DNA from: a virus
Reading direction: 5' to 3' (one strand)
DNA length: 64,000 nucleotides
IMG/VR virus record: IMGVR_UViG_3300035670_000119
Coordinates: 1-64,000 of that record
A program made the position numbers and the translations under genes. Positions 1,549-64,000 of this stretch are shown here, in pieces. The notes below the pieces were generated by a model. That model had not been told where the DNA came from. It worked only from the letters and a program-made list of their open reading frames with translations, and did no database searches. The first letter of the stretch is position 1. Every line of letters begins with the position of its first letter.

Positions 1549-1825
1549 TGCGCTGCTTTGCTTTTTTGGCTACTTTAGCAGCTTTCAAACCCTTTTCGTA
1601 TTCTTCTCGAGTGCTCCAATCCTCTTTGCCCCATTTCTCCAAAGACTTTTGTTTTTCTCCCTTGCCACCTTTGTAACCACCACCAGCTTCCTTGTACTCC
1701 TGTGCGACAAGCTGGGCCTTACGCGCAGACCACTGCCCAGGCTTGCCACCTTTAGAGCCTGCCATTACACGATCTTTAATGCGTTCGCGTAACTCGGGTT
1801 TTGTGTATTTATTCTCCTGAGACAT
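1523..1825 (-). CDS. DUF5872-like protein, N-terminal half
   Basis: YTKPELRERIK...GSKGGKPGQWSARKAQL...YKEAGGGYKG signature. Confidence 0.75.
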   Translation of the reverse strand: MSQENKYTKPELRERIKDRVMAGSKGGKPGQWSARKAQLVAQEYKEAGGGYKGGKGEKQKSLEKWGKEDWSTREEYEKGLKAAKVAKKAKQRNAQKNSRP

Positions 1826-4226: not shown

Positions 4227-4659
4227 ACTTTGCATACGCTGTAAAAACAACAAAACCCTGGAAAGCTTTGGTTTTTCAGGGTATGTCAAAAAAACTGGCG
4301 AAAAAAGCCGCTGCACTTATTGCCGTGATTGTCAAAATGAACTAAGAGTTGAAAGGAAATTTGGAGTTTCTTATCGTGAGTATCAAAAAATACTAGAAGC
4401 TCAAGGAGGTTGCTGTGGTAACCCTAACTGTAAAACAAAAAAACCTGGAGCCCCTGGGCGTAAACGATTTTATATTGATCATTGCCATGTTACGGGAAAA
4501 ATAAGGGGACTACTGTGTCATTCTTGTAACCTTGCTCTTGGTCATGTTCAAGATGACGTTAAAAAACTAAAAGGTTTAATTGAGTATTTAAATGATGAAT
4601 CAATTAATTGGGGATATGTTAAAAGCTATCATCAAGTGGTGGAAGAAGACGTGGTTTGA
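4207..4659 (+). CDS. recombination endonuclease VII-like HNH nuclease
   Basis: CxxC pairs; QGGCC...IDHCHVTGKIRGLLCHSCNLALG; overlaps both neighbours. Confidence 0.85.
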   Translation: MTQILSKLCIRCKNNKTLESFGFSGYVKKTGEKSRCTYCRDCQNELRVERKFGVSYREYQKILEAQGGCCGNPNCKTKKPGAPGRKRFYIDHCHVTGKIRGLLCHSCNLALGHVQDDVKKLKGLIEYLNDESINWGYVKSYHQVVEEDVV

Positions 4660-4903
4660 AGCCAAGCTCAAAGCGCGGCTCACCATGATCGAATGGGAAA
4701 ATCAATGGGAAGCTCAACGGGAGCTTGAGGAACAGAATAAGCCGATCTATATTGAACATGAAATAAATCCGGAACTCCAGACAGGTGAGTCCAGGAAACT
4801 GGGCGGAGCCATGGAGCTACGTGCGCCTTGGTACAATGACCCCATACAACCCCAACGGCAAGATGGAGTGCAGGAAGCGCCTGGCATGGACGATCGCCTG
4901 TGA
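4592..4903 (+). CDS. hypothetical protein
   Basis: ORF in a packed plus-strand operon; start uncertain. Confidence 0.55.
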   Translation: MMNQLIGDMLKAIIKWWKKTWFEAKLKARLTMIEWENQWEAQRELEEQNKPIYIEHEINPELQTGESRKLGGAMELRAPWYNDPIQPQRQDGVQEAPGMDDRL

Positions 4904-5093: not shown

Positions 5094-5282
5094 ATGGACA
5101 TTACTGTCGGCATGGGTGAGTGGATGAATAGTCTCATGAGTCGCATGACAAGTGCGGCAGATGGGGACTGTTTTTATCTGCCCACACTCATGCACCTCCA
5201 TGCTTACAACTTGCTAAAGGAGAGCTGTTTCCCAGATAAAAACTTTAAAGTAGCCGTAGAAAAGACTGTTTTAAGCAAATGA
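5094..5282 (+). CDS. hypothetical protein
   Basis: Stop overlaps primase start; TAGGAT box upstream. Confidence 0.6.
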   Translation: MDITVGMGEWMNSLMSRMTSAADGDCFYLPTLMHLHAYNLLKESCFPDKNFKVAVEKTVLSK

Positions 5283-20719: not shown

Positions 20720-21066
20720 CCAAAGGGTTTGCCAAACTGGCCCGTTGGTTTACGGGCGTAGCCTACTGCTCCGCTGCGCCCACCTGAGTCACCCGTGGTA
20801 GGCAACTCAGTTCCCTCAATGGAGGCTCTTGTTCTAGGAGTTTTTCCTCGGACAGAGGGCTCTGAAATACTGGTGCGTTGCTGATATGCGCCAGCAGTCC
20901 GCGCTGCTTTCATGTATTGAGCTACGCGATCTTGGCTGTTATTGATATTTTCAACAGCAAAGCGTTCATCTGGCTCCAGGCGGCGCAAATCTGTGTCGTA
21001 CGCCTGTTCCGGACGCAAATCAGAAACTTCGGCTCCTGATGTACCAGAGTTTTGACTTGCTTTCAA
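20716..21066 (-). CDS. hypothetical protein
   Basis: 116-aa ORF; start uncertain. Confidence 0.55.
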   Translation of the reverse strand: MKASQNSGTSGAEVSDLRPEQAYDTDLRRLEPDERFAVENINNSQDRVAQYMKAARTAGAYQQRTSISEPSVRGKTPRTRASIEGTELPTTGDSGGRSGAVGYARKPTGQFGKPFG

Positions 21067-21121
21067 AGTCTTAAATGTTTGCCATCTTATTATTGTAAAA
21101 GACCTGAATCAATGCTTAGCT

Positions 21122-56500: not shown

Positions 56501-57004
56501 TGGAACGGCAACAGCTTGATCTGTAGATGAGGTACTGCGTTGTTTTTCTTCCAGGCGGCGCTGAAGAAATTGTTGGGCACCAGAGTTTACTGTTTCGTTA
56601 CGTACGTCAGCTACAGGGGGCTCCTTGGATTCTTGTACGTCAACTAAGGTTTCCTCTGGAACTTCCGGTACATCTTCCTGTGGACGGTAACGTGCGCCCG
56701 CTGCAGTCTCTAAATCGGTAAAAGTGACGCCTGACTTACCAGGCTGCTTAGGAATATCAGTAACACCACGGTCCTGAAGCAGTTTACGCACCCCATAAGC
56801 ACCTGCACCAAGGCCAGCAGCCGCTAAACCAAGGCCAATGCCCACCGAAACAGGGTCAATGCCCTCAGATTGGGGTGCTTTTAGCTGATTACGGCGAAAT
56901 TCCAGAACTTCTGGGGCCATCTGCGCCCTTTCTTCCGGATCTTCGGGTACTGGAACCCCGGTTGCACGGCTATAAGCGTAAAAATCAGCGGGTGCCAGTG
57001 CCAT
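53573..57004 (-). CDS. large hypothetical protein (first gene of late operon)
   Basis: 1143 aa; hydrophobic Gly-rich helix near the N-terminus. Confidence 0.7.
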   Translation of the reverse strand: MALAPADFYAYSRATGVPVPEDPEERAQMAPEVLEFRRNQLKAPQSEGIDPVSVGIGLGLAAAGLGAGAYGVRKLLQDRGVTDIPKQPGKSGVTFTDLETAAGARYRPQEDVPEVPEETLVDVQESKEPPVADVRNETVNSGAQQFLQRRLEEKQRSTSSTDQAVAVPQEERIYAPSSVLPAARRPLREEKILDRLASEQALLEQPIFSKRAWNEGTSLSPSRQMPEGIVNYPSSLKNVYEGEEVNVLGPSSPMRETFSAFAQIDPEMVDRQIQNVLNDTELSPGQKEGAIYNLQRLKQASEGVRGEAGTTALALSRKGKLPYTELLDEPISGIRGEMREVVNPAYAEAMKNYWERRSAELPHTITDYEKRKAAGLLNYQLPEAQRDSRNRAQTFGGWDKATSEALQEIYESEVGDIPQYITELRPARGEEARARLGEQEEYTGPLQKYFEKERPSGSTQPRDRAYLPVYQPEVYPAMRKINGQMVGFPSYNLSSLTAESRQSPIRYKGAETGNIIDTVPMAVDALTENEIAPGVIGQFKTTEIVHAPLQRVELVTDPDSGKTKPRLVNFNIRLDAEVSPYAAALVGVPPLTSIQNAVQSIKDIHGDDYETINRKVNVLLKNTVGDTPIMTQRPFDQYDESRRQFINMLSGASYETQQKGFLVGVNGEKLPYTGPQTKGKSAVQNEQNRRTNIIEAQRQLSNTIESSLKQQGLDPEEISKRTQTLVSQYLPGFDESGVITSAKPQISSPERQLSGQPLPDIMQKSATGENVRSAYYARLEPSMGGAVSSQLRTLLKSGAQVSTDPPGTPGAKVTYKMGDKTVSYPRNQLIETLKRENQDALNIAELTGITLKGEGEVVSGPYQTLSSRQTGQPNVSPTQRPAKPGFYYNEFGELIQEPITSSFTGPARFAAGPASDVLSGDYPQGGSRLSVRTSPSAELQEYNRYRLAAAAEATPGGRMVRGAQQLGQGIGAIPAGLGALTESQVLERYGASGSQLQQIGNQLMAQAAYKRGQQPGATQVGVKTGERNIPMGTAGERTYGPIPPPQQGPAVSTLGTSANREIAGYERRVTGPQLSIPGMLTERPASGYTPNSALDFYEKALAREAQQLASQSTPQRMVRRQGKMVPMAQANRPVQRNVFFPRG

Positions 57005-57125
57005 TTGTTTATTGTTGCGCGTTAAAGTTGTCCTTCTTTGTATTTTAAAGGAAAGAATTTGTAAAACACTACGTAAGTTAGACTGTTAACAAGAAAAACA
57101 CAGCGACAAGCAACGTAAAAAAGTC

Positions 57126-57335
57126 ATGAACCCTAAAACGCAGATGGAAAGGGGAATTGCACTCAAGGCAATTGCCAGCAAAGCACGAGAACTGCAAGAT
57201 AAAGGAGTCAGTGGCTTAGCTGTAGATCAATTTTTAATTGGTGCCAGGCAAAAATTGGCGGAAGAGCGCCCTGATGTAGAAGCACACGCTAAGGCCGCGG
57301 CTGCATCTAACAAATGGATGGCACAAAACCGTTAA
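57126..57335 (+). CDS. hypothetical protein
   Basis: 69 aa; TAGACT box at 57079. Confidence 0.6.
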   Translation: MNPKTQMERGIALKAIASKARELQDKGVSGLAVDQFLIGARQKLAEERPDVEAHAKAAAASNKWMAQNR

Positions 57336-57367
57336 GAAGAGTAAAAATATTTTTTAATATTTTTTAC

Positions 57368-57391
57368 CGGGGGCTAAAACCCCCGTTTTTT
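57368..57391 (+). terminator. intrinsic terminator
   Basis: CGGGGG-ctaaaa-CCCCCG followed by a T run. Confidence 0.7.
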
Positions 57392-57604
57392 GTGTAATTT
57401 TTTGGTGTAAGCAGTTGTTACCCATACATTTTTTGCAAAAATTGGCCCTATAGGGGTCCAAAAAGGATAAAAAATTATCTGACGCTTCTTCAACACCATG
57501 CGCGTAGTGAATTGCGTATAGAAAAAAAGAAAGGTGTGGTGGGTTAAATAATTTATCGGGGGCTGCGCATCCGTGTAACGCAGGTATTCCATCGCTTTAG
57601 ATCA

Positions 57605-57916
57605 ATGCAGTTGACGAAGGAAGAGCAGAAGGTTGTCGAGTTTGACGACCGTTGTCAGATGGTGGCAAGTTATCTATGGGAAGGTAAGTCTGTCACGATG
57701 ACTGCGAAGCAGCTTGAGTGGTATGACGTGACGCCGCACCAAGTGATAGCGGAGCTGAGCGGTTGGCTTCGTTCGGAAGAGCAAGAAGCCTGCTGGGAAG
57801 CGGAGCATTTGTATCGTGGCAGCCGCCGTGAGCGTACACATGTTGTCTATTGCACCAAGCAAGGTGACAAGTATGTGTTCAAGGCGAAGGTTGTCAAGGT
57901 AGCTAACTACGTTTGA
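57605..57916 (+). CDS. hypothetical early protein
   Basis: 103-aa ORF. Confidence 0.6.
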   Translation: MQLTKEEQKVVEFDDRCQMVASYLWEGKSVTMTAKQLEWYDVTPHQVIAELSGWLRSEEQEACWEAEHLYRGSRRERTHVVYCTKQGDKYVFKAKVVKVANYV

Positions 57917-57928
57917 CGGTTAACTCTT

Positions 57929-57956
57929 CCCCTGGTGAGAGCCAGGGGTTTATTTA
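57929..57956 (+). terminator. intrinsic terminator
   Basis: CCCCTGGT-gaga-GCCAGGGG followed by TTTATTT. Confidence 0.7.
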
Positions 57957-58049
57957 GCCCTCAAAGCTATGCTTCTAGACGCATAAACGCATTCTGTACA
58001 GTCTGTACATCGCGCGCGCGTACTTTTGGGCTACATCTGCTGCCTGTTC

Positions 58050-58126
58050 AGGCAGGACAGTCGCGCCGCAAGGGATCTCAGCGATTAATCGTCAAGCTGG
58101 ACGTTAAACGTAGCCTTGTCCTACCT
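58050..58126 (+). ncRNA. multibranch leader RNA containing a UAAAC pseudoknot
   Basis: Outer stem 58050-58060/58116-58126; TCGC/GCGA arm with GCAA loop; CGTC-aagctg-GACG-ttaaac-gTAGC. Confidence 0.45.
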
Positions 58127-58137
58127 AATTCAACACC

Positions 58138-58299
58138 ATGACTTACACCGTTATCATCAAGCATCACGACGTATTCTCTCAGTCTTATCTCCAGGGCTGT
58201 GAGCAATCGTTTGACACTGAGCAGCAAGCTCAGGATTACATTCAAACATTTGAGGATTGGGAACAAGATCTTCTGGAGATTGATTTCAATCCTTTCTGA
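58138..58299 (+). CDS. hypothetical early protein (53 aa)
   Basis: Hand-translated MTYTVIIKHHDVFSQSYLQG...FNPF. Confidence 0.55.
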   Translation: MTYTVIIKHHDVFSQSYLQGCEQSFDTEQQAQDYIQTFEDWEQDLLEIDFNPF

Positions 58300-58339
58300 G
58301 TAACAGGCGTGATGCCGGGGGATCGAATCCCCCACTCAG
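58296..58339 (+). ncRNA. T-loop-containing three-way mini-RNA
   Basis: CTGAGT/ACTCAG stem; GGC-gtgat-GCC; GGGGG-atcgaat-CCCCC. Confidence 0.45.
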
Positions 58340-58380
58340 TATTGCCACAATTCAGTGGCATTTACCTACACCACACGACC

Positions 58381-58569
58381 GTGATCAAAGCACAGAACGT
58401 CTACGCACTCATCATCATCCAGGCATTTGCCATGGGTATTATCGCTGGTCCAGTTGCTGGATACTTCATTGATAAGGCAACTGCCAAGCAATGCATTACT
58501 CACGACTGGCCGAAGGAGGCCGATCAAATCCACCGTGATTGGTGCGTCACTAACGGCTACAAGATCTAA
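58381..58569 (+). CDS. small membrane protein
   Basis: TM helix followed by QCITHDWP...WC..NGY. Confidence 0.6.
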   Translation: MIKAQNVYALIIIQAFAMGIIAGPVAGYFIDKATAKQCITHDWPKEADQIHRDWCVTNGYKI

Positions 58570-58641
58570 GACTCCTGCTCTGGGGACTACGGTCCCCTCA
58601 ACAGGACTCAACATCCTGTATCCCACTGCTCATTCAACACC

Positions 58642-58851
58642 ATGTCAATGATTAAGAACTGCACTGTCGTACTTTCCAACGGCAACGTCGTTGGGATGCA
58701 TGCAAACGAAGCAGATGCAGAAATGCAAGCAATGGAGCTGGCATACGAATGGCGCAGACAATCTGACTGTGGCTCCGAGGTACCAGCACCTAAGCTTGCC
58801 GTCCTGTCATTCAATGACTGGATGCAACTGCAGAAAGAGTTTGCATTCTGA
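58642..58851 (+). CDS. hypothetical early protein
   Basis: A/C-rich leader, 69 aa. Confidence 0.6.
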   Translation: MSMIKNCTVVLSNGNVVGMHANEADAEMQAMELAYEWRRQSDCGSEVPAPKLAVLSFNDWMQLQKEFAF

Positions 58852-58945
58852 TTCCTGCACTTAACCCTTCCATTGTGGTACATATGTACTACGACGGTAG
58901 GTTTTCTGCAGGCAATCAAGTCTGCTATCCAACTCAACTCAGCTC

Positions 58946-59134
58946 ATGACTGCACTACACATCCGCAAGAACATTGCTGCTGCACTGTTTAACACAGCGG
59001 CAGCTATTGACAATGCCAAGCTTCCTACCAAGGAAGATATCGGTACTAAGGTGAATGAGTATCGGCTGCGTGCAGCGGCACTCATGATGCCGAACGATAT
59101 GGCATTCGTCATCACTCCTAAGCAAGGCAACTGA
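58946..59134 (+). CDS. hypothetical early protein
   Basis: A/C-rich leader, 62 aa. Confidence 0.6.
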   Translation: MTALHIRKNIAAALFNTAAAIDNAKLPTKEDIGTKVNEYRLRAAALMMPNDMAFVITPKQGN

Positions 59135-59136
59135 TC

Positions 59137-59340
59137 ATGCACCGTAATTACTTTTCTGACTCCTGTGTCGCTCTTATTCTTGGCTCTGGCTTGGGTTTAC
59201 TGTTATCTGTTGGAGCACAGAAGCTTCTCAACAGACACTACCAAGCAACGTGCCATGACAGACCAGGACACAATCTGATCTACGTCCAAGGATTCCTTGG
59301 CGATACGTACTACTGCATCAACAGTAAGTATATCAACTGA
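59137..59340 (+). CDS. small membrane protein
   Basis: TM helix plus GDTYYCI. Confidence 0.6.
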   Translation: MHRNYFSDSCVALILGSGLGLLLSVGAQKLLNRHYQATCHDRPGHNLIYVQGFLGDTYYCINSKYIN

Positions 59341-59432
59341 TCTCTGCACTTTCCCATCATATCCATTGGATGTGATGGGTTCCTGCAGGGCTTAGCTCTG
59401 CATACACCACACGACACCACCAGGACTCAACC

Positions 59433-59678
59433 ATGACTCCTAAAGCTGTTGAATATCTCCTGACCCAAGACGCTCGTCTGCTAGCCAGGAGAGATGCCCC
59501 TTGCATCGACCAAGAACTTGAGGCGCAGCGCCAAGCTGCTCTTGAATTGTTCTTCGAGTGGCAAGACGGTATGCGTCAATTCCAAGACCTTGTTCCCTTC
59601 GTTGCCATCGTGCAGCGTAAGGTAGATCTCAACCGGGATCTGCTTCGTTGGGAACGCAGGCAACTGGAACAAGATTGA
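59433..59678 (+). CDS. hypothetical early protein
   Basis: 81 aa. Confidence 0.6.
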   Translation: MTPKAVEYLLTQDARLLARRDAPCIDQELEAQRQAALELFFEWQDGMRQFQDLVPFVAIVQRKVDLNRDLLRWERRQLEQD

Positions 59679-59752
59679 CGACTACACTGAGGGGCTTCGG
59701 CCCTTCTCTGTAGTCTTCATCAAGAAGGCTACGTACCACTGCACACAACACT

Positions 59753-60016
59753 ATGGCAGTTTCAATTGACCATCACGACATCACAGCAGCCCTTAATAAA
59801 TTCAACCTTGAGGTAACTGATTATTATCTTGAGTTTGCTGATGATGTCATCTATATGTACTGGGTAGCATGCCCGGCAGATATAGAACACTACATCAAAG
59901 AAGACACTGGTTGCCTTGCGATTCAGATTAAAGGCAAGTGGTTCTATCTGGATGAATCCCGACCGGACACTGAGCGTCCGTTTGTTAACTGTCGTTATAT
60001 CTTGGAGACAATCTGA
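59753..60016 (+). CDS. hypothetical early protein
   Basis: 87 aa. Confidence 0.6.
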   Translation: MAVSIDHHDITAALNKFNLEVTDYYLEFADDVIYMYWVACPADIEHYIKEDTGCLAIQIKGKWFYLDESRPDTERPFVNCRYILETI

Positions 60017-60222
60017 TGAAGACGATTTATTCAATGGGGAGAGGCAAATACATCCACCTCGATTCTTACGGTGAGTCTCATGGGACTCGCCGTTGGTCAG
60101 TTGGTATTGCCCTCTTCTCCATCGTCATCGCCGCCATCACTGCCACCGCACTGGTGGACGTTGACATCACTGATCCTTCACTGAAACAACACCATGTCAT
60201 TCACAATCGCATTGGTTACTGA
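60016..60222 (+). CDS. small membrane protein
   Basis: Coupled (TGATG); TM helix. Confidence 0.55.
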   Translation: MKTIYSMGRGKYIHLDSYGESHGTRRWSVGIALFSIVIAAITATALVDVDITDPSLKQHHVIHNRIGY

Positions 60223-60418
60223 CCGGAGTGGGCGTTATGCTCACGTCTGGGGAGAACCAAGGAGCTGGAATCAATTCGTTGAACAGCTCGAAGATGCTGG
60301 CTGCGAAGTGATTGAAAACCAGACCGAAGATTGGGAAGGGTCTACCAGGGATGAAGTCGCTGAAGACTGCTTGACAGTTCATCAGCTACTGCACGACACT
60401 GACTTCATTCCCCACTAA
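60194..60418 (+). CDS. hypothetical early protein
   Basis: 74 aa, acidic. Confidence 0.6.
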   Translation: MSFTIALVTDRSGRYAHVWGEPRSWNQFVEQLEDAGCEVIENQTEDWEGSTRDEVAEDCLTVHQLLHDTDFIPH

Positions 60419-60420
60419 AC

Positions 60421-60475
60421 ACCTGGGCATCCACAATTGAGAACTCTTCTCAATAACGTGGTGTAAGTCCCAGGT
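60421..60475 (+). ncRNA. CA/GUAAGU internal-loop RNA element, copy 1
   Basis: ACCTGGG-CA-[stem-loop]-GTAAGT-CCCAGGT. Confidence 0.65.
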
Positions 60476-60503
60476 CCAACCGTTCACTTACTCAACTTAC
60501 ACC

Positions 60504-60686
60504 ATGAGAGACCCTAACTTCATTGATGAACAACGTAACGCTGACTTGCTTGATACCATGGCTGATGTGGCATATCAACAAGAGCAAGCCATGCGTGAAG
60601 CGTTTGAAGAACATCAAGAACAATGGATGATGCGTGAATTGAATCTCAACTTATTTGAACAGGAGACCTACGATGACCAAGCCTAA
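60504..60686 (+). CDS. hypothetical early protein
   Basis: 60 aa. Confidence 0.6.
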   Translation: MRDPNFIDEQRNADLLDTMADVAYQQEQAMREAFEEHQEQWMMRELNLNLFEQETYDDQA

Positions 60687-61086
60687 GTACACACTGCGTC
60701 AAGCATGGGATGACGGTGACATTATCGTCATCCTGATCGCAATCATTTCAATCATCATCACTGAATTCGCATCATGTCTTACATCTCAGAACTCAAGAAG
60801 TTCTACCCCAAGACCTACAAAGTCCGCTTTGCAATCAACGCCTACAACACACACAAGTATTTCGAACACGAAAATCCAACGGTCATCACCGTGCACGAAA
60901 CCTGCCTCCGTTATGGAGGACCCGAAGAAGGAGGCTGGTGGTTCCAGCAAGGTAACCCGGTCCTCAGCCACTGCATCTTCTCCAAGAAGCAAGCGATCCA
61001 AACCTACGTCAAGTACTTCGAAGAGTACAAGATCGAAGGGCAGCCGTCTCTTGGAGATACAACAACTAGCTCCAACATCGAGCTAA
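60673..61086 (+). CDS. membrane-anchored protein with tail overlapping next gene
   Basis: AGGAG upstream; TM IIVILIAIISIII, then S/T/K-rich tail. Confidence 0.45.
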   Translation: MTKPKYTLRQAWDDGDIIVILIAIISIIITEFASCLTSQNSRSSTPRPTKSALQSTPTTHTSISNTKIQRSSPCTKPASVMEDPKKEAGGSSKVTRSSATASSPRSKRSKPTSSTSKSTRSKGSRLLEIQQLAPTSS

Positions 61087-61142
61087 GTTTTTCCAACAGG
61101 TATGCAGAGGTGTACCCTAAGACGCGTCCCCATTACTGCTGA
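60774..61142 (+). CDS. hypothetical early protein
   Basis: YGGPEEGGWW...PHYC motif. Confidence 0.7.
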   Translation: MSYISELKKFYPKTYKVRFAINAYNTHKYFEHENPTVITVHETCLRYGGPEEGGWWFQQGNPVLSHCIFSKKQAIQTYVKYFEEYKIEGQPSLGDTTTSSNIELSFSNRYAEVYPKTRPHYC

Positions 61143-61147
61143 GATTC

Positions 61148-61390
61148 ATGCTTGCCACTGCAGTACCAGCACTCAGTATCAATCAACGTAACCTCTATGC
61201 TTACTTCTTGAACCACAAGAAGAAGTATGGGAACACACCATGCTTTGTACCAAGGCTTCCGTCACAGGCCTCAAGGCTTGAGCAATATCTTCAAGCCTTG
61301 GTAAGGCTAGAGGAATACGGATTGATACGTGTAGACAGAAGCGTTGATAACTACACAGGCTGGATGATGCTAGAACCTAAGGCCACATAA
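61148..61390 (+). CDS. winged-helix-like hypothetical protein
   Basis: LSINQRNLY...ALVRLEEYGLIRV. Confidence 0.55.
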   Translation: MLATAVPALSINQRNLYAYFLNHKKKYGNTPCFVPRLPSQASRLEQYLQALVRLEEYGLIRVDRSVDNYTGWMMLEPKAT

Positions 61391-61467
61391 CGTAATAACA
61401 GTGCCGTAGTATTGGATGGCATGTAAGAATTGCCAATACATGCCAATACTTCAGTTATAGTCTCAAT

Positions 61468-61508
61468 CCTGGGCAGCACTGACGTAAGTACGGTGCGTAA
61501 GTCCCAGG
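61468..61508 (+). ncRNA. CA/GUAAGU internal-loop RNA element, copy 2
   Basis: CCTGGG-CA-GCACTG...CGGTGC-GTAAGT-CCCAGG. Confidence 0.65.
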
Positions 61509-61511
61509 CTT

Positions 61512-61739
61512 TTATCCGACTGTATTACGTACATCAGGTGTAAACCTTTGCATCTGATCTAACAACCTAAGCTCTGCTTGTTTGTTTTGTATCGGAATGC
61601 TTTCATTTCTTATAACAGATGTTAAGAAGTCCATTACTTTATCTTGAGGTGGCATAGAACCATGTGCCTTCATGTATTCTTGTTGCCACCCTTGAAGGAA
61701 TGGACTATTGGCCATTGCATATCTACCAGCTAATAACAT
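61512..61739 (-). CDS. hypothetical protein, inverted relative to its cluster
   Basis: 75-aa ORF filling the gap between two RNA elements. Confidence 0.55.
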   Translation of the reverse strand: MLLAGRYAMANSPFLQGWQQEYMKAHGSMPPQDKVMDFLTSVIRNESIPIQNKQAELRLLDQMQRFTPDVRNTVG

Positions 61740-61766
61740 GGACCTGAGTATGTCCTTAAACTACTC
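61740..61766 (+). ncRNA. UAAAC H-type pseudoknot
   Basis: GGAC-ctGAGTAt-GTCC-ttaaac-TACTC. Confidence 0.55.
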
Positions 61767-61807
61767 AGTCCATCATACTCATCATCAACCTCAACTCCAC
61801 ATCAACC

Positions 61808-62083
61808 ATGACCTACCCCGAAATCGACTGGAAGAAGAACGAGTACAAGCAATTGGAAGAAGCTTTGGACATACTCAAAGCTGTCATCGAACGTGAATCA
61901 AAGCGTCATCAAATGGATGAGCACTTAGTTCCAGGAGATAATGATATTGTCCAAGAAGCAATCGGTTTGCTTGAAGAGATCATTGACTATGACCCGACAC
62001 CTAACGAGCCTGGTGAACCTCCCATGACAATGGACGAAATGCACAGTGCTGCATGGAAAGAACACCAGGAGATGCACCGGTAA
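61808..62083 (+). CDS. hypothetical early protein
   Basis: 91 aa; DYDPTP...EPPMT. Confidence 0.65.
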   Translation: MTYPEIDWKKNEYKQLEEALDILKAVIERESKRHQMDEHLVPGDNDIVQEAIGLLEEIIDYDPTPNEPGEPPMTMDEMHSAAWKEHQEMHR

Positions 62084-62234
62084 CAGCCAACTAGGGGGGA
62101 CTAGTACATAAGTACTTCCCCCCACACCCCCCGACAGAGTACCAGGGAATCCTTGGATTTATATAGGACATACTTATGTTCCATTCCCTTGACTCCCTGG
62201 TAGACTGTCCTTGTTAATCAACTCATCTCAACCC

Positions 62235-62447
62235 ATGACTACTCCCAACACTCCACGTATACCTGACTCTCTTGACATGCAAAGACTTCAAGCTATGCAA
62301 CTTGTTGCAAAGATGAAGGAATCAGCAGAGAGAAATGGTATTGGATTCATTGGTGGATTCATTGCTCCGAATGGAGAGAAGTTTGTCATGACCAACATGA
62401 CAGACGAAGATGACATCAATGCACTCATGCCGGAGGATCTTAAGTGA
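62235..62447 (+). CDS. hypothetical early protein
   Basis: MTTPNTP...; TAGACT box at about 62200. Confidence 0.6.
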   Translation: MTTPNTPRIPDSLDMQRLQAMQLVAKMKESAERNGIGFIGGFIAPNGEKFVMTNMTDEDDINALMPEDLK

Positions 62448-62779
62448 ATCAATCTCATCCCGTTATTCCAACCGAGTACCTGCTTGATGCTTGGCATCAG
62501 CAACATCAACGATACAGAAAGAGCTTCAAAGAAATTCTTATTGAAGCTGCCCAATGGGGAGCTGATACAGAATTAGAAGAATGTTGTAAGCTATTCGAAT
62601 CTAATTCTGTATGTGGCACCAAGTTTCAGCGGAGATCTTCTGTTCGAGATCTACGTGAAAAGCGTAGACCTTCACCCAAGCAAAAGACATTGACAGTGTC
62701 AATCACTGGTACTGAAGATGAACTTGAACAACTCATTCGCAAACTCAAACATGAACAACAAATCTCGATTGAACTTTGA
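62444..62779 (+). CDS. cyanophage hypothetical protein (AAQWGAD-type)
   Basis: AAQWGADTELEECC. Confidence 0.65.
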   Translation: MNQSHPVIPTEYLLDAWHQQHQRYRKSFKEILIEAAQWGADTELEECCKLFESNSVCGTKFQRRSSVRDLREKRRPSPKQKTLTVSITGTEDELEQLIRKLKHEQQISIEL

Positions 62780-62948
62780 CAAAACTATCGCAGGATTCAA
62801 CATTACCGAGCGCGGTGTGCGCTCGTACAGTAAATCAATTAAGCTTGGTCCATTCCAAGTAACACTTAACGCACGTGAGTCTGGCTTACGTGGTACCATT
62901 GGTATCCCTGGCACAGGCGTTTCAATTCCAAACATTAAGCTAATCTAA
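62751..62948 (+). CDS. DUF4236-like protein
   Basis: SKSIKLGP...TIGIPGTGVS. Confidence 0.6.
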   Translation: MNNKSRLNFDKTIAGFNITERGVRSYSKSIKLGPFQVTLNARESGLRGTIGIPGTGVSIPNIKLI

Positions 62949-63012
62949 AGATCTGGGCATCCGAAAGCAACGCCGCGTCCAGGACACGCCGTAGGTGTAA
63001 GTCCCAGATCTT
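62948..63012 (+). ncRNA. CA/GUAAGU internal-loop RNA element, copy 3
   Basis: AAGATCTGGG-CA-TCC...GGT-GTAAGT-CCCAGATCTT. Confidence 0.65.
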
Positions 63013-63034
63013 GTCCACTAACTCAACTCAACTC

Positions 63035-63220
63035 ATGTCTGCTTACGTCGAAAACCTCACCTTGTTTGATCGCATCAATCTTGCTGCCTGCGCACAGCGC
63101 AGAGCAACAGAAAATGTGTTGGATTCAACACGATTCAATGGCGAGTTTGACACAGCACGTCTGTGGATGAAGTATCGCCTTGTCAAGTACAGCAACTATT
63201 CATTTATCGAGGGCAACTGA
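63035..63220 (+). CDS. hypothetical early protein
   Basis: ACTCA-repeat leader; MSAYVENL. Confidence 0.6.
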   Translation: MSAYVENLTLFDRINLAACAQRRATENVLDSTRFNGEFDTARLWMKYRLVKYSNYSFIEGN

Positions 63221-63471
63221 TGACAGTCTTAGCAATCGAAAACACTTCATTCACTGACACTCATGTCACAGTTACAGCAGTTGTTGACGAGATGCGCCTG
63301 CTCTATCGCGGAAGTCGTCTCGACCCTGAAGAGTGGGCTCCTGCATTGTGTCAAGCAACTATTGAGTTGGATCCAGAGGAACAAATCCCTCTTGATGAAG
63401 ATGGCTTCTGTGCCTATCTTGATCACCTCGATCCTCAATGGCAAGTACTAGATCCGGAGGACATCGGATGA
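63220..63471 (+). CDS. hypothetical early protein
   Basis: Coupled; DPEEWAPALC. Confidence 0.65.
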   Translation: MTVLAIENTSFTDTHVTVTAVVDEMRLLYRGSRLDPEEWAPALCQATIELDPEEQIPLDEDGFCAYLDHLDPQWQVLDPEDIG

Positions 63472-63653
63472 TTGGCTTCTCAATTGAATTCAAACGTTGG
63501 TACTTTGTACTACGTGGTCCTAAGGGTCGTGTGTACTTGGCAACTGGCTTTGCTAAACGCATGCCAGTCATAACGCCGATTGGCACCTATGACATGGAAC
63601 AGTACATCGAAGAGACGTCACTGTTCTTAGATATACATCGGTACGAAGACTGA
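63468..63653 (+). CDS. hypothetical early protein
   Basis: GGAGG Shine-Dalgarno; MIGFSIEF. Confidence 0.6.
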   Translation: MIGFSIEFKRWYFVLRGPKGRVYLATGFAKRMPVITPIGTYDMEQYIEETSLFLDIHRYED

Positions 63654-63657
63654 TCAC

Positions 63658-63685
63658 ACGTCCTGGACATGACGTTAAACTGTCT
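63658..63685 (+). ncRNA. UAAAC H-type pseudoknot
   Basis: ACGTC-ctGGACAt-GACGT-taaac-TGTCT. Confidence 0.55.
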
Positions 63686-63708
63686 ATTTCATTTACTCAT
63701 TTAACCCA

Positions 63709-64000
63709 ATGGAAATCAATTCTCCAACGCCACCTTTAGATCTTGTTAATGATTGGATGACGCATTGGTATGACGACAATCAAACCGATGATACCCAAGA
63801 AATGTACATTGCAACTAAGGCTGCAATGTGGGGTGCTATCTGGGGTGCTACTAATGCGTTAGAAACAGCTATCAAAGACACATCTCCTGTTCACTGGCGT
63901 GTAGCCGGTGGTGCAGAAGATGGTCAGCAAATAGTACGTGTTATTGATCTAATGGAATGGCTTGCACAATTCCGTAAAGAATATGAGGAGAAGATCAATG
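63709..64000 (+). CDS. hypothetical protein (partial; resembles 62444..62779)
   Basis: Hand-translated MEINSPTPPLDLVNDW...YIATKAAMWGA. Confidence 0.6.
   Translation, partial: MEINSPTPPLDLVNDWMTHWYDDNQTDDTQEMYIATKAAMWGAIWGATNALETAIKDTSPVHWRVAGGAEDGQQIVRVIDLMEWLAQFRKEYEEKIN

Follow-up and report, generated by a model that had tools for sequence, protein, structure and literature searches.

An 85.9-kb S-EIV1-like cyanophage genome carries eight copies of a 28-base motif, for which covariation strongly supports a transcribed sense-strand RNA element folding as a compact H-type pseudoknot. The same fold recurs in many unrelated phages (more than 200 instances in viral and bacterial contigs), and its core, CGUCC…GACGUUAAACU, is identical in sequence to "coremin", the RNA by which plant and fungal RNA viruses resist Xrn1. 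We suggest, with a probability of roughly 0.42, that the knot, as RNA alone, bars the way of enzymes moving 5' to 3', above all RNase J, and stays folded between ribosomes that terminate and ribosomes that initiate. The window analyzed here is the first 64 kb of the genome.

Copies, fold and covariation

All eight copies lie on the + strand and, like those of S-EIV1, are oriented in the same way as the flanking genes. The three inside the window (Table 1) were found where the first-pass annotation had reported them, and all are genuine; that annotation missed five further copies past the window end, at genome positions 64258, 71644, 74846, 75972, and 79780. The genes behind the copies are of replication type (PcfJ-like, GP88 plus DNA polymerase, SSB, DUF5895). 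The consensus RNA, CGUC-C-(U+5 nt)-Y-GACG-UUAAAC-(U+5 nt), is predicted to form a 4-bp stem 1 (S1), a 1-nt loop 1 (L1, C), a stem 2 (S2) of 5–6 bp, one junction nucleotide, and an A-rich 6-nt loop 3, UUAAAC.

Table 1. Coordinates of the pseudoknot copies in the window and of adjoining features.
Feature	Position	Strand	Description
Divergent variant	58090–58114	+	CGTC-aa-GCTG-GACG-ttaaacg-TAGC
Competing nested hairpin	61738–61773	+	ATGGAC.TGAGTA ... TACTCAGTCCAT; S2 kept, S1 replaced
Pseudoknot with swapped S1	61740–61767	+	GGAC-c-TGAGTA-t-GTCC-ttaaac-TACTCA
TGA stop and 5-nt spacer tcaca	63651–63658	+	Ends ORF 63438–63653; S1 next
Canonical pseudoknot	63659–63686	+	CGTC-c-TGGACA-t-GACG-ttaaac-TGTCTA
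S1 of the 63659 copy	63659–62 with 63671–74		CGTC with GACG; L1 = C 63663
S2 of the 63659 copy	63664–69 with 63681–86		TGGACA with TGTCTA; junction T 63670; linker TTAAAC 63675–80
G-free 22-nt leader, then ATG	63687–63711	+	ATG of ORF 63709–end (sequence and ORF list)

Topology alone was no proof, since generic compact pseudoknot-compatible sequences were common on both strands (59 on +, 53 on −). TTAAAC alone was not enriched either (50 matches vs. 47.3 expected). A degenerate 23-nt pattern occurred at two sites in the window and four in the following 19 kb, while 0/100 and 0/200 shuffles matched it. With the covariance model, the 85.9-kb genome yielded seven matches over the full length (E ≤ 8.2e-5; + strand only, 61.7–79.8 kb), all of them seed members that match by construction, and nothing above noise besides these. 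Rfam 15 contained no family for the motif.

The 63659 copy matched the pattern exactly (0/100 shuffles) and, as a seed member, scored 47.6 bits (E 1.1e-9). Its orthologues in three related contigs (L022, L076, and L057) precede the same downstream gene, with S2 being GGGCA/TGCCT or GGACA/TGTCC. The 61740 copy, also a pattern match and seed member (30.3 bits), adjoins a divergent − strand ORF at its start (61739); the S1 type of this copy recurs at genome position 71644 and in other contigs. The much stronger nested hairpin at this site (−14.4 kcal/mol, z = −4.3, equaled by 0/200 shuffles), which the first-pass annotation had overlooked together with the coremin identity, was not seen at the remaining GGAC-type copies. 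The 58090 variant has an L1 of AA, a 4-bp S2 with one G.U pair, no junction nucleotide, and the linker TTAAACG, and gave only a partial covariance-model match (10.5 bits, E 2.9). In the related contig L041 it is kept ahead of the homologous gene, with CAGC in place of TAGC, turning the G.U pair into G-C. A terminator-like hairpin (57929–57948) stands 140 nt upstream of it.

Covariation of both stems strongly supported the fold, with the topology and compensatory changes first proposed; it was seen within the genome, in relatives at orthologous sites, and in a set of more than 200 instances. Among the genome copies, S1 is CGTC/GACG or GGAC/GTCC, and S2 is GGACA/TGTCT, GGATA/TGTCC, GAGTA/TACTC, AAGCA/TGCTT, or GGTCA/TGACC, being imperfect in two copies (one C.A mismatch at 71644; 4/5 pairs and a 1-nt longer loop at 75972). 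We examined 120 unique pattern-defined instances from at least 116 viral contigs, with S2 left unconstrained by the pattern. All four free S2 positions paired in 96 of them, compared to a mean of 40.3 and a maximum of 54 in 2000 partner shuffles, and no instance paired fully in S2 when the register was slid (five registers, 0/120). The junction nucleotide was T in 85, A in 20, and C in 15. In an alignment of 94 sequences, 92.8% of the cells were paired, a level reached by 0/500 shuffles (84.1% after shuffling); slid registers gave at most 44%, and five of the six S2 pairs varied on both sides. Compensatory S1 types were GGAC/GTCC, GGTC/GACC, TGTC/GACA, AGTC/GACT, AGAC/GTCT, CCTC/GAGG, and CGTG/CACG. 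Near-pattern windows retained S1 4/4 and S2 ≥ 5/6 in 40 of 60 cases. The frequent G.U pairs in S2 limit the structure to the sense strand.

Placement relative to genes

Motif carriers are phages of cyanobacteria, Firmicutes, Actinobacteria, Mollicutes, CPR bacteria, and others. Across these phages, the distance from the upstream stop codon to S1 had its mode at exactly 5 nt (49/227 instances, representing 37 loci and 45 distinct stop-plus-spacer strings); only 6/227 were closer, and the knot began 5–12 nt past the stop in 109/227. On the other side, the commonest class of S2-to-ATG gaps was 19–22 nt (57/167 instances). The 58090, 61740, and 63659 copies end 23, 40, and 22 nt before an ATG (at 58138 and 61808 for the first two), so the 23–41 nt annotated earlier was essentially right. 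Neither the start codon nor the leader is sequestered by the knot. The leader is A/U/C-rich and G-poor, and the 28 nt behind the knot were less structured than a control 200 nt further (mean −2.0 vs. −3.6 kcal/mol; fully unfolded stretches 41% vs. 15%). Leaders in this genome showed no Shine-Dalgarno sequence.

Some copies directly follow terminators. A self-cleaving ribozyme lies immediately 3' of the knot in two contigs, Pistol in L101 and Hammerhead_3 in L177, the latter with its cleavage site ~7–8 nt past the knot. In one Vibrio phage family, a copy is antisense to annotated genes, and in S. aureus phages the motif is located in the late head-gene cluster, not in the early region.

Likeness to coremin and other compact pseudoknots

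Coremin (xrRNA-C) is known from BNYVV, cucumoviruses, and many other eukaryotic RNA viruses (Dilweg et al., 2019, PMC6546385; Dilweg et al., 2023, PMC10520033). It stalls Xrn1 and, in vitro, scanning ribosomes, and stimulates frameshifting; as a block it is known solely in the 5'-to-3' direction. We found no paper joining coremin and phages. In the published motif, GUCCGAAGACGUUAAACUAC, hp1 is C1G2U3C4/G9A10C11G12. Experimentally, its bottom pair is dispensable, the second and third pairs can be swapped, and the loop-closing C-G allows almost no change; U is the sole substitute for C5, U13U14 accept changes, and A15 to A20 are required. The variation seen naturally in phages agrees with this: pairs 1 and 3 differ between copies, the linker can read UA-, CU-, or AU-AAAC (AAAC was required by the scan), and C5 and U19 were constant in strong model hits, most scans having fixed both. 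The two elements share stem 1 (CGUC/GACG), the pyrimidine C directly after it, and the linker UUAAAC-U-purine, together with a free bottom pair, swappable pairs 2 and 3, a nearly fixed C-G, free U13U14, and fixed AAAC-U. Both are viral, both reside in untranslated or intergenic RNA, and both occur as tandem copies.

There are also differences. The phage loop has 8 nt with U at position 2, where the coremin consensus demands G, and unlike in coremin it would form Watson-Crick pairs with the 5–6 nt following UUAAAC. Coremin requires a second hairpin (hp2) to resist Xrn1, whereas the phage motif has no conserved hp2. The phage carriers are DNA phages and prophages of hosts without Xrn1, whereas coremin carriers are eukaryotic RNA viruses. 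We regard the phage fold, on its sequence, as a variant of coremin, the exoribonuclease-resistant RNA, with a long Watson-Crick stem 2.

Also close are a Watson-Crick coremin (xrRNA-WCC), obtained in a randomization screen, and Sanxia picorna-like virus 5 (Dilweg et al., 2023, PMC10321173). Here, too, stem 1 and the linker are of coremin type, loop 1 is one nucleotide, and the loop pairs with the 3' portion of the spacer in a canonical antiparallel stem 2; xrRNA-WCC still depends on hp2 to resist Xrn1. Its stem 2 has 3 bp (nt 6–8 with 18–20) and takes in the C of AAAC, whereas that of the phages has 5–6 bp and begins one nucleotide later, at U19; loop 1 is G in xrRNA-WCC and C in the phage motif. 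Luteoviral −1 frameshift pseudoknots (BWYV type) are likewise compact H-type folds with a short stem 1, a 1–2-nt C-containing loop 1, a single junction nucleotide, and an A-rich loop 3, and lie ~5 nt past the A-site codon. Unlike them, the phage motif has no slippery heptamer and comes after stop codons, where readthrough would add only a short tail (16 codons at 63651, from the sequence). Xrn1 is not stalled by knots of the BWYV type, according to a comparison with coremin (PMC10321173). PreQ1-I and SAM-II are also small H-type pseudoknots in 5' leaders, with an A-rich strand in the stem 1 groove; the phage motif differs in having no Rfam similarity, conserved ligand-pairing nucleotides, sequestering of the ribosome-binding site, or link to metabolic genes.

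A candidate barrier to RNA decay and its rivals

From these features, we infer a barrier function and, as the enzyme that it may chiefly block, RNase J. The 5'-exonuclease block proposed in the first-pass annotation thereby gains indirect support, from the core sequence and the pattern of tolerated changes common to the motif and coremin. Several observations count against a 5' barrier: the missing hp2 that coremin needs for Xrn1 resistance; U instead of the coremin G at loop position 2; the knots 5' of ribozymes (L101, L177) and the antisense copy in the Vibrio phages; and the nested hairpin at 61740, whose stability should out-compete stem 1. In its favor, a review describes cyanobacteria as having one RNase J, apparently essential and active as a 5'-3' exonuclease, and E. 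coli as having none. Among five host bins with a well-paired copy, all incomplete, one had RNase J above the curated cut-off, another had a 320-bit match, and three had none.

A two-way or 3'-end barrier, which would mainly guard the message upstream of it against 3'-to-5' exonucleases once the open leader is cut, or else block both sides, seems unlikely, although several placements suit it. Nearly half of the instances begin shortly past a stop, the G-poor leader resembles a good endonuclease target, and hammerhead cleavage in L177 would put the knot on the upstream RNA, at its 3' end, rather than at the 5' end of the downstream RNA, which fits such a barrier better. In chloroplasts, PPR proteins between cistrons block exonucleases from both sides, including RNase J. 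However, two of the eight copies (58090 and 61740) have no same-strand gene end close by, yet a gene start 23–40 nt on; the distance from knot to AUG is constrained as well, and the known direction of the coremin block is the opposite one.

We consider it similarly doubtful that the knot is a translation insulator, which would halt the sliding or re-initiation of ribosomes done with the upstream gene, keep the leader lacking a Shine-Dalgarno sequence from pairing with upstream RNA, and so allow each cistron independent initiation; it might be a 30S standby or docking site as well. The effect of coremin on scanning ribosomes, the unusually unstructured 28 nt downstream, and the lack of Shine-Dalgarno sequences in the leaders of this genome favor it. 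The translation enhancer named in the first-pass annotation is conceivable too, given the constrained distance to the AUG and the open leader. By ribosome footprint geometry, the 5-nt minimum after the stop and the 19–22-nt gap before the AUG suit ribosomes on both sides, but any structure coexisting with ribosomes would show placement limits. The motif also precedes genes with clear AGGAG sites (Firmicutes-type contexts) and non-coding neighbors such as ribozymes and terminators.

Binding of a conserved protein (a nuclease, ribosomal protein S1, or a phage regulator) for co-ordinated control of the genes behind is less probable still. Eight copies in this one genome ahead of replication-type genes and the strict conservation of C5, the AAAC-U tract, and the loop-closing pair, read with the scan constraints given above, would agree with it. 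Since the motif is common to phages of many bacterial phyla and eukaryotic RNA viruses, such a partner would need to be universal, and the late position of the S. aureus copy counts against it as well.

There is little room for a DNA-level signal, whether a phage promoter, a recombination boundary, or a single-strand DNA structure. The S. aureus copy is annotated as a promoter (BPROM-based), TAAACT is similar to a −10 hexamer, terminators directly precede some copies, and sigma-70-like promoters were few in 57–64 kb (4 vs. 10.8 expected). However, these promoter-like sites coincide with no copy, a conserved −35 element at proper spacing was not found, and a protein site in duplex DNA would not predict covarying interleaved stems with many G.U pairs. 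The ligand sensor suggested in the first-pass annotation is the least probable of all: size, topology, and the A-rich loop 3 alongside a G-C-rich stem 1 resemble preQ1-I and SAM-II, but, as that annotation itself observed, their sequence is not shared (no Rfam match even at E ≤ 10), the junction nucleotide varies (U, A, C), the start codon and leader are left free, and the functions of the downstream genes are unrelated.

The 5' barrier has precedents in its logic. Chloroplast PPR proteins form protein barriers between cistrons against RNase J and 3' exonucleases, and Gram-positive mRNAs carry 5' stabilizer stem-loops; in each, a block between cistrons or at the 5' end sets stable mRNA ends. 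The proposed phage block would consist of a 28-nt RNA fold alone, whereas the PPR barriers are protein. Lying between cistrons of polycistronic early or replication messages, or heading a transcription unit, the knot would be a mechanical obstacle, working without protein, to enzymes traveling 5' to 3'. Foremost among the candidates is RNase J, an exonuclease present in cyanobacteria and Firmicutes, and the second is an endonuclease search tethered at the 5' end. Placement at least 5 nt after the stop and ~20 nt before the AUG would let the knot stay folded beside both ribosomes. Because its core matches a plant-virus RNA that stops RNA-degrading enzymes, the knot may shield the message behind it: decay initiated upstream would halt there, leaving the downstream cistron with its 5' end protected and an open leader after it.

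Copies of the pseudoknot in the cyanophage genome

The window represents bases 1–64000 of a single contig of 85,905 bases. Pfam matches in this genome include primase-helicase, terminase, collagen-like fibre, family A DNA polymerase, SSB, ThyX, and GP88; taken together with two tRNAs, they indicate a tailed phage. Megablast of positions 58000–63999 against cultured phages returned no match. Relatives came from a protein search instead, in which the DNA polymerase matched its counterpart in Synechococcus phage S-EIV1 at 69.9% identity, with other cultured phages far lower. From ~57.6 kb to the genome end, nearly all plausible genes were small, located on the plus strand, and preceded by G-poor leaders without a Shine-Dalgarno sequence.

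The three H-type pseudoknot sequences reported by the first-pass annotation were present in the window, and five further copies were found beyond it (Table). All eight copies lay on the plus strand, in the same sense as the genes, and the next ORF opened with its own ATG 20–40 nt past the copy. The consensus of this 28-nt element (the knot) consists of stem 1 (S1, CGTC or GGAC), C (C5, loop 1), T plus 5 nt (stem 2, S2), one pyrimidine, the 3′ strand of stem 1 (S1′, GACG or GTCC), the linker TTAAAC (loop 3), and T plus 5 nt (S2′). S1 was CGTC/GACG in six copies and GGAC/GTCC in two; TAAAAC replaced the linker in one. A degenerate 23-nt pattern matched 2 + 4 sites and none in shuffled sequences. 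A covariance model found the seven canonical copies, which were its own seed members, with the rest of the genome at noise. The word TTAAAC was not enriched in the window, and a generic scan for pseudoknot-compatible strings was uninformative alone because the counts were alike on both strands. One knot-like string (GCAA-ctggct-TTGC-taaac-gcat-GCCAGT) has a longer linker, is not matched by the model, and is probably due to chance.

The 61740 copy may differ in behaviour from the others. An extended nested hairpin (−14.4 kcal/mol) is possible there, with the 5′ strand of S1 used differently, and the copy adjoins the start codon of a divergent minus-strand ORF. On minus-strand RNA, the hairpin would enclose this start codon. 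A second repeated intergenic element, following plus-strand genes, is a long hairpin; its arms are CTGGGCA... / ...GT(G)TAAGTCCCAG, its interior varies, and a T-run comes after one copy. It could act as a terminator or as a site of processing. Within positions 57000–64000, sigma-70-like promoter matches were fewer than in shuffled sequences (4 vs. 10.8 ± 3.2), and terminator-like hairpins were more numerous (13 vs. 5.6 ± 2.3), consistent with long transcripts that read through and have structures as punctuation.

Table. Coordinates of the knots and associated features
Feature	Record	Position	Strand	Remarks
Knot, three copies noted at first	window	58090; 61740; 63659	+	
Knot, five further copies	same genome	64258; 71644; 74846; 75972; 79780	+	
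Genes behind the eight copies	same genome			53-aa, 91-aa, and 98-aa ORFs; PcfJ-like; GP88 + DNA polymerase; SSB; DUF5895 protein; 37-aa ORF
Knot-like string	window	63540-63577		inside ORF 63438-63653
Possible second hairpin	window	58110-58124		not kept in L041
Lone minus-strand ORF, 75 aa	window	61512-61739	-	inside plus-strand early region; start adjoins 61740 knot
Extended hairpin	window	61738-61773		
Second intergenic element	window	60423-60474; 61468-61509; 62950-63010		
Second intergenic element	same genome	~66690-66730		
Knot variant CGAC/GTCG	L195 (Staphylococcus phage B166)	1500-1527		B166 record 21041-21068; S1 variant
Knot with Pistol	L101	1760-1853		knot immediately 5′ of Pistol (64.2 bits)
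Knots with type III hammerheads	L177	2154-2176; 3136-3158	-	knots immediately 5′ of hammerheads (50.7, 49.7 bits)
Tandem knots	L072 (giant-virus bin contig)	4619-4800		three copies ~75 nt apart
Knot match in CRISPR spacer	L126 (Bradymonadales bin)	~1785-1825		between direct repeats
Knot match in CRISPR spacer	L153 (Calditrichia bin)	~5128-5170		between direct repeats

Covariation of the two stems

The compensatory change proposed earlier for both stems was borne out: S2 varied among the copies with pairing kept, and S1 swapped two pairs together. Nested folding of the eight copies gave z-scores of −0.1 to −0.9, except for 61740, and is uninformative for a pseudoknot. In S-EIV1, copies stand ahead of the orthologs of the GP88-like, SSB, and adjacent genes, and their stems differ (S1 TGTC/GACA and AGTC/GACT; S2 AAGCA/TGCTT); the covariance model added three further copies. 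The divergent 58090 copy also precedes the homologous gene in another contig (L041), where its G·U pair is G-C.

IMG/VR was scanned with S1 and the linker fixed and with the loop and downstream bases free. At least 116 loci were obtained, several with 2–6 copies; the covariance-model search covered 100 of these at least 116 viral loci. Among the matches listed (141 instances), S2 paired at 5/5 positions in 116, at 4/5 in 21, at 3/5 in three, and at 2/5 in one. After removal of duplicates, 96 of the 120 matches listed paired at all four free positions, compared to a mean of 40.3 and a maximum of 54 in 2000 partner shuffles and 0/120 in slid registers. In a 94-row alignment built from the matches listed, 92.8% of cells were paired; none of 500 shuffles reached the observed values, and slid structures were paired at no more than 44%. 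Five of the six S2 pairs varied on both sides in this alignment (e.g., GC 47 and AU 37 at one pair). Among 60 windows missing the pattern at 1–4 fixed positions, 40 kept S1 at 4/4 and S2 at 5/6 or better, and seven alternative S1 types were found, each compensatory. We consider the pseudoknot structure near certain.

Distribution and placement between genes

Knots were found in cultured phages: Microcystis Mwe-JY13, Nostoc NMeng1, Synechococcus S-H35, Lactobacillus phiEF-1.1, Mycobacterium Labelle, Arthrobacter Molivia, Paracoccus and Bacillus phages, Moorella MTATph1, and phage D6E. A Vibrio phage family had one copy, antisense to annotated genes. A copy was also carried by 83 Staphylococcus aureus phage records, including the temperate phages 80, 29, 52A, phiNM4, and phiETA. 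In Staphylococcus phage B166, it is located 9 nt past the head-morphogenesis stop codon, ahead of ORF41 and the major capsid gene. The B166 knot overlaps a "promoter" feature annotated from a BPROM prediction, and the same region occurs in the 83 S. aureus phage records.

Bacterial genome contigs yielded 82 pattern instances in 74 loci. The raw count alone shows nothing, as a rough chance estimate is ~69 (17 fixed bases, 596 Gb), but most of the matches are real because S2 pairs at 5/5 in 44 instances and at 4/5 in 18, compared to chance expectations of ~1 and ~5 among the 82. The 20 instances with three or fewer S2 pairs, which include gammaproteobacterial, Wolinella, Prevotella, and archaeal records, are probably chance matches. 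Carriers among bacterial contigs included Enterococcus and many other Firmicutes, Saccharibacteria and other CPR bacteria, Phytoplasma, Alphaproteobacteria, Anaerolineae, and Poribacteria. Two bacterial matches were CRISPR spacers, which indicates that hosts acquire spacers across the phage motif.

Several contigs showed repeated or accompanied knots. In the giant-virus bin contig with three tandem copies, the first two each preceded a terminator-like hairpin within the stretch examined. Two adjacent knots were present in L033, L087, L130, L173, and L176, and the loop or linker of the second one was often variant. In the Firmicutes-type contigs L035, L166, L190, and L194, a recurring A/T-rich stretch followed by GCGTNTCTGGGC...GGTC[AG]GAT was located ~30 nt past the knot; L178 partly resembled it, and no Rfam family matched this sequence at the gathering threshold.

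Placement was analyzed in 227 structure-defined instances (167 before the bacterial loci were joined) among the matches listed, and an upstream stop was counted if it closed an ORF of at least 40 codons. The gap from the stop to S1 was exactly 5 nt in 49 of these 227 listed instances, 6–12 nt in 60, and less than 5 nt in six; 46 had no qualifying upstream ORF within 90 nt. The 49 instances at 5 nt came from 37 loci with 45 distinct stop-plus-spacer strings, so inheritance of a single arrangement does not account for the gap. In the cyanophage genome, it was obeyed by three of the eight copies (63659, 64258, and 75972). Downstream, the distance from S2 to the ATG peaked at 19–22 nt (57/167) and 26–28 nt (23/167) among the matches listed, and both flanks were depleted in G (6–12%). 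According to crude ORF calls, 107 of 198 non-edge knots had same-strand genes on both sides, with the remainder uninterpretable. Assignment of knots to the upstream or downstream gene by ORF orientation failed, as spurious antisense ORFs were numerous in these calls.

When a stop codon occupies the A site, a knot that follows after a 5-nt spacer has its first pair just beyond the mRNA entry and helicase site of the ribosome; the knot is thus as near the stop codon as possible without being unwound. A distance of ~20 nt is roughly the closest that a structure gets to the AUG without a clash with the initiating 30S subunit. We take these limits next to ribosomes to reflect selection for a knot able to remain folded while the polycistronic message is being translated.

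Relationship to coremin and possible function

No Rfam 15 family corresponded to the knot in the whole genome (gathering threshold), in positions 57900–64000 (E ≤ 10), or in 18 other loci (gathering threshold); the sole matches were tRNAs, one Pistol, and two Hammerhead_3. A full-text search with motif 10-mers led to the literature on coremin (GUCCGAAGACGUUAAACUAC), an RNA that resists Xrn1 and occurs in BNYVV as well as many other RNA viruses. As described by Dilweg et al. (2019, PMC6546385; 2023, PMC10520033), its first hairpin (hp1) is CGUC/GACG, followed by C5, and the spacer is UUAAACUAC. Hp1 has 3–5 bp with a C-G (or U-A) loop-closing pair, and structure outweighs sequence. The bottom pair is dispensable and pairs 2 and 3 are swappable, but the loop-closing C-G cannot be turned to G-C. 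C5 can be changed only to U, U13U14 are tolerant, and A15–A20 are essential. The loop consensus is YGAD, or YGNNAD if 6 nt long, with a final C excluded. Coremin stops Xrn1 one nucleotide before hp1 and also stops scanning ribosomes. The same authors modelled a pseudoknot of the luteoviral frameshift type (BWYV-like) with C5 as loop 1, and Watson-Crick variants (WCC) were found by screening (PMC10321173); the second hairpin (hp2) is described as required for Xrn1 resistance in both coremin and WCC.

The phage knot shares stem 1, C5, and the linker with coremin and has an A-U pair at U19. S1 pairs 1 and 3 covary elsewhere, the loop-closing C-G is altered in one S1 type (CGTG/CACG), and UUAAAC-U-(G/A) is kept. 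The linker variants TAAAAC, CTAAAC, ATAAAC, and AAAAAC differ at the first two positions only, in a near-pattern scan limited by an AAAC filter. Natural variation of the phage knots thus sits where coremin tolerates change. The loop is different: it is 8 nt long with U, not G, at position 2, and position 1 is C in seven of the eight copies studied here. It ends with A followed by T in 85, A in 20, and C in 15 of the 120 matches listed, whereas coremin excludes C. Stem 2 is canonical, with 5–6 bp from U19, unlike coremin. It is covariation-supported and resembles that of WCC, for which the published description gives a register from C18, 3 bp, and G5 as loop 1; position 5 of the phage knots was C in the pattern-defined and variant instances, most scans having C5 fixed. 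The phage knot also differs from WCC and coremin in having no hp2. The 28 nt past stem 2 were less structured than control sequences (mean −2.0 vs. −3.6 kcal/mol), and 41% had no fold at all. Judged from sequence and pairing, the knot constitutes a new variant of the coremin pseudoknot, from viruses of prokaryotes.

In bacteria, the natural counterpart of Xrn1 is RNase J, an enzyme also present in Firmicutes, Actinobacteria, and Mollicutes. A review describes RNase J as a single, apparently essential gene in cyanobacteria and as present in B. subtilis and S. aureus. Given the coremin match, the arrest of Xrn1 and scanning ribosomes by coremin, and the placement rules, we infer that the knot would act as a barrier to exonuclease. 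Against this stand the missing hp2 and the U at loop position 2. Among five host bins, all incomplete, RNase J was above the cut-off in one, reached 320 bits in another, and was not found in three.

Ribozymes were found next to some knots. One knot lay immediately 5′ of a Pistol, and two in L177 lay immediately 5′ of type III hammerheads; after cleavage, at least by the hammerhead, the upstream product would carry the knot. L177 contained two Hammerhead_3 over the threshold and three to four by motif. Four knot-plus-hammerhead modules occurred there in ~4 kb. A hammerhead-core expression searched beside the 227 knots among the matches listed found true cases in L177 only; four other matches were in coding sequence. 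The knot itself never scored as RF02679, and identity with Pistol was rejected.

The predicted position on the upstream product in L177 favours a two-way or 3′-end barrier, whereas arrest of Xrn1 ahead of hp1 in coremin agrees with a barrier to 5′ attack. Because of the absent hp2, the U loop, the RNase J content of the bins, and the ribozyme adjacency, this alternative and an insulator against ribosomes both stay live rivals of the exonuclease barrier; coremin's effect on scanning ribosomes bears on the latter. A ligand-sensing riboswitch is unlikely: the likeness to preQ1-I and SAM-II suggested at first found no Rfam match at E ≤ 10 in positions 57900–64000 or at the gathering threshold in the whole genome. 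A DNA-level signal is also unlikely, as the frequent G·U pairs in S2 point to sense-strand RNA rather than duplex DNA. No promoter-like site coincided with a copy and no common −35 element was found, so a sigma-70 promoter was rejected. A −1 frameshift stimulator, which calls for a slippery heptamer 5–9 nt upstream and an overlapping ORF in the −1 frame, was discarded too, since the upstream sequences end in stop codons without an X XXY YYZ heptamer and the downstream ORF has its own ATG.

We give a probability of about 0.3 to the full reading, in which DNA phages from many bacterial phyla share one minimal exonuclease-resistant RNA fold with the RNA viruses of plants, fungi, and insects. This would make the phage form the first xrRNA from prokaryotes: a stop for RNase J-type enzymes, 28 nt long and free of protein, that splits polycistronic messages into separately stable pieces. 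Hundreds of covarying copies would give the coremin pairing scheme (C5 as loop 1, A pairing with U19, stem 2 3′ of AAAC).

To our knowledge, exoribonuclease-resistant RNAs have so far been a feature of eukaryotic RNA viruses, and no paper in the searchable literature connected coremin or xrRNA with phages or RNase J. The barrier idea is directly testable because the motif occurs in cultured, laboratory-tractable systems: S-EIV1, S. aureus temperate phages, and phages of Lactobacillus, Mycobacterium, Arthrobacter, and Bacillus. RNase J mutants are available in several of these hosts. If the reading is true, synthetic biology would gain a portable 28-nt stabiliser and insulator, and RNA structural biology would obtain an extensive set of natural covariation data on a fold so far refractory to structure determination. 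If the phage knot works like coremin, it would represent a new layer of phage gene expression, the RNA-only partitioning of operon transcripts.
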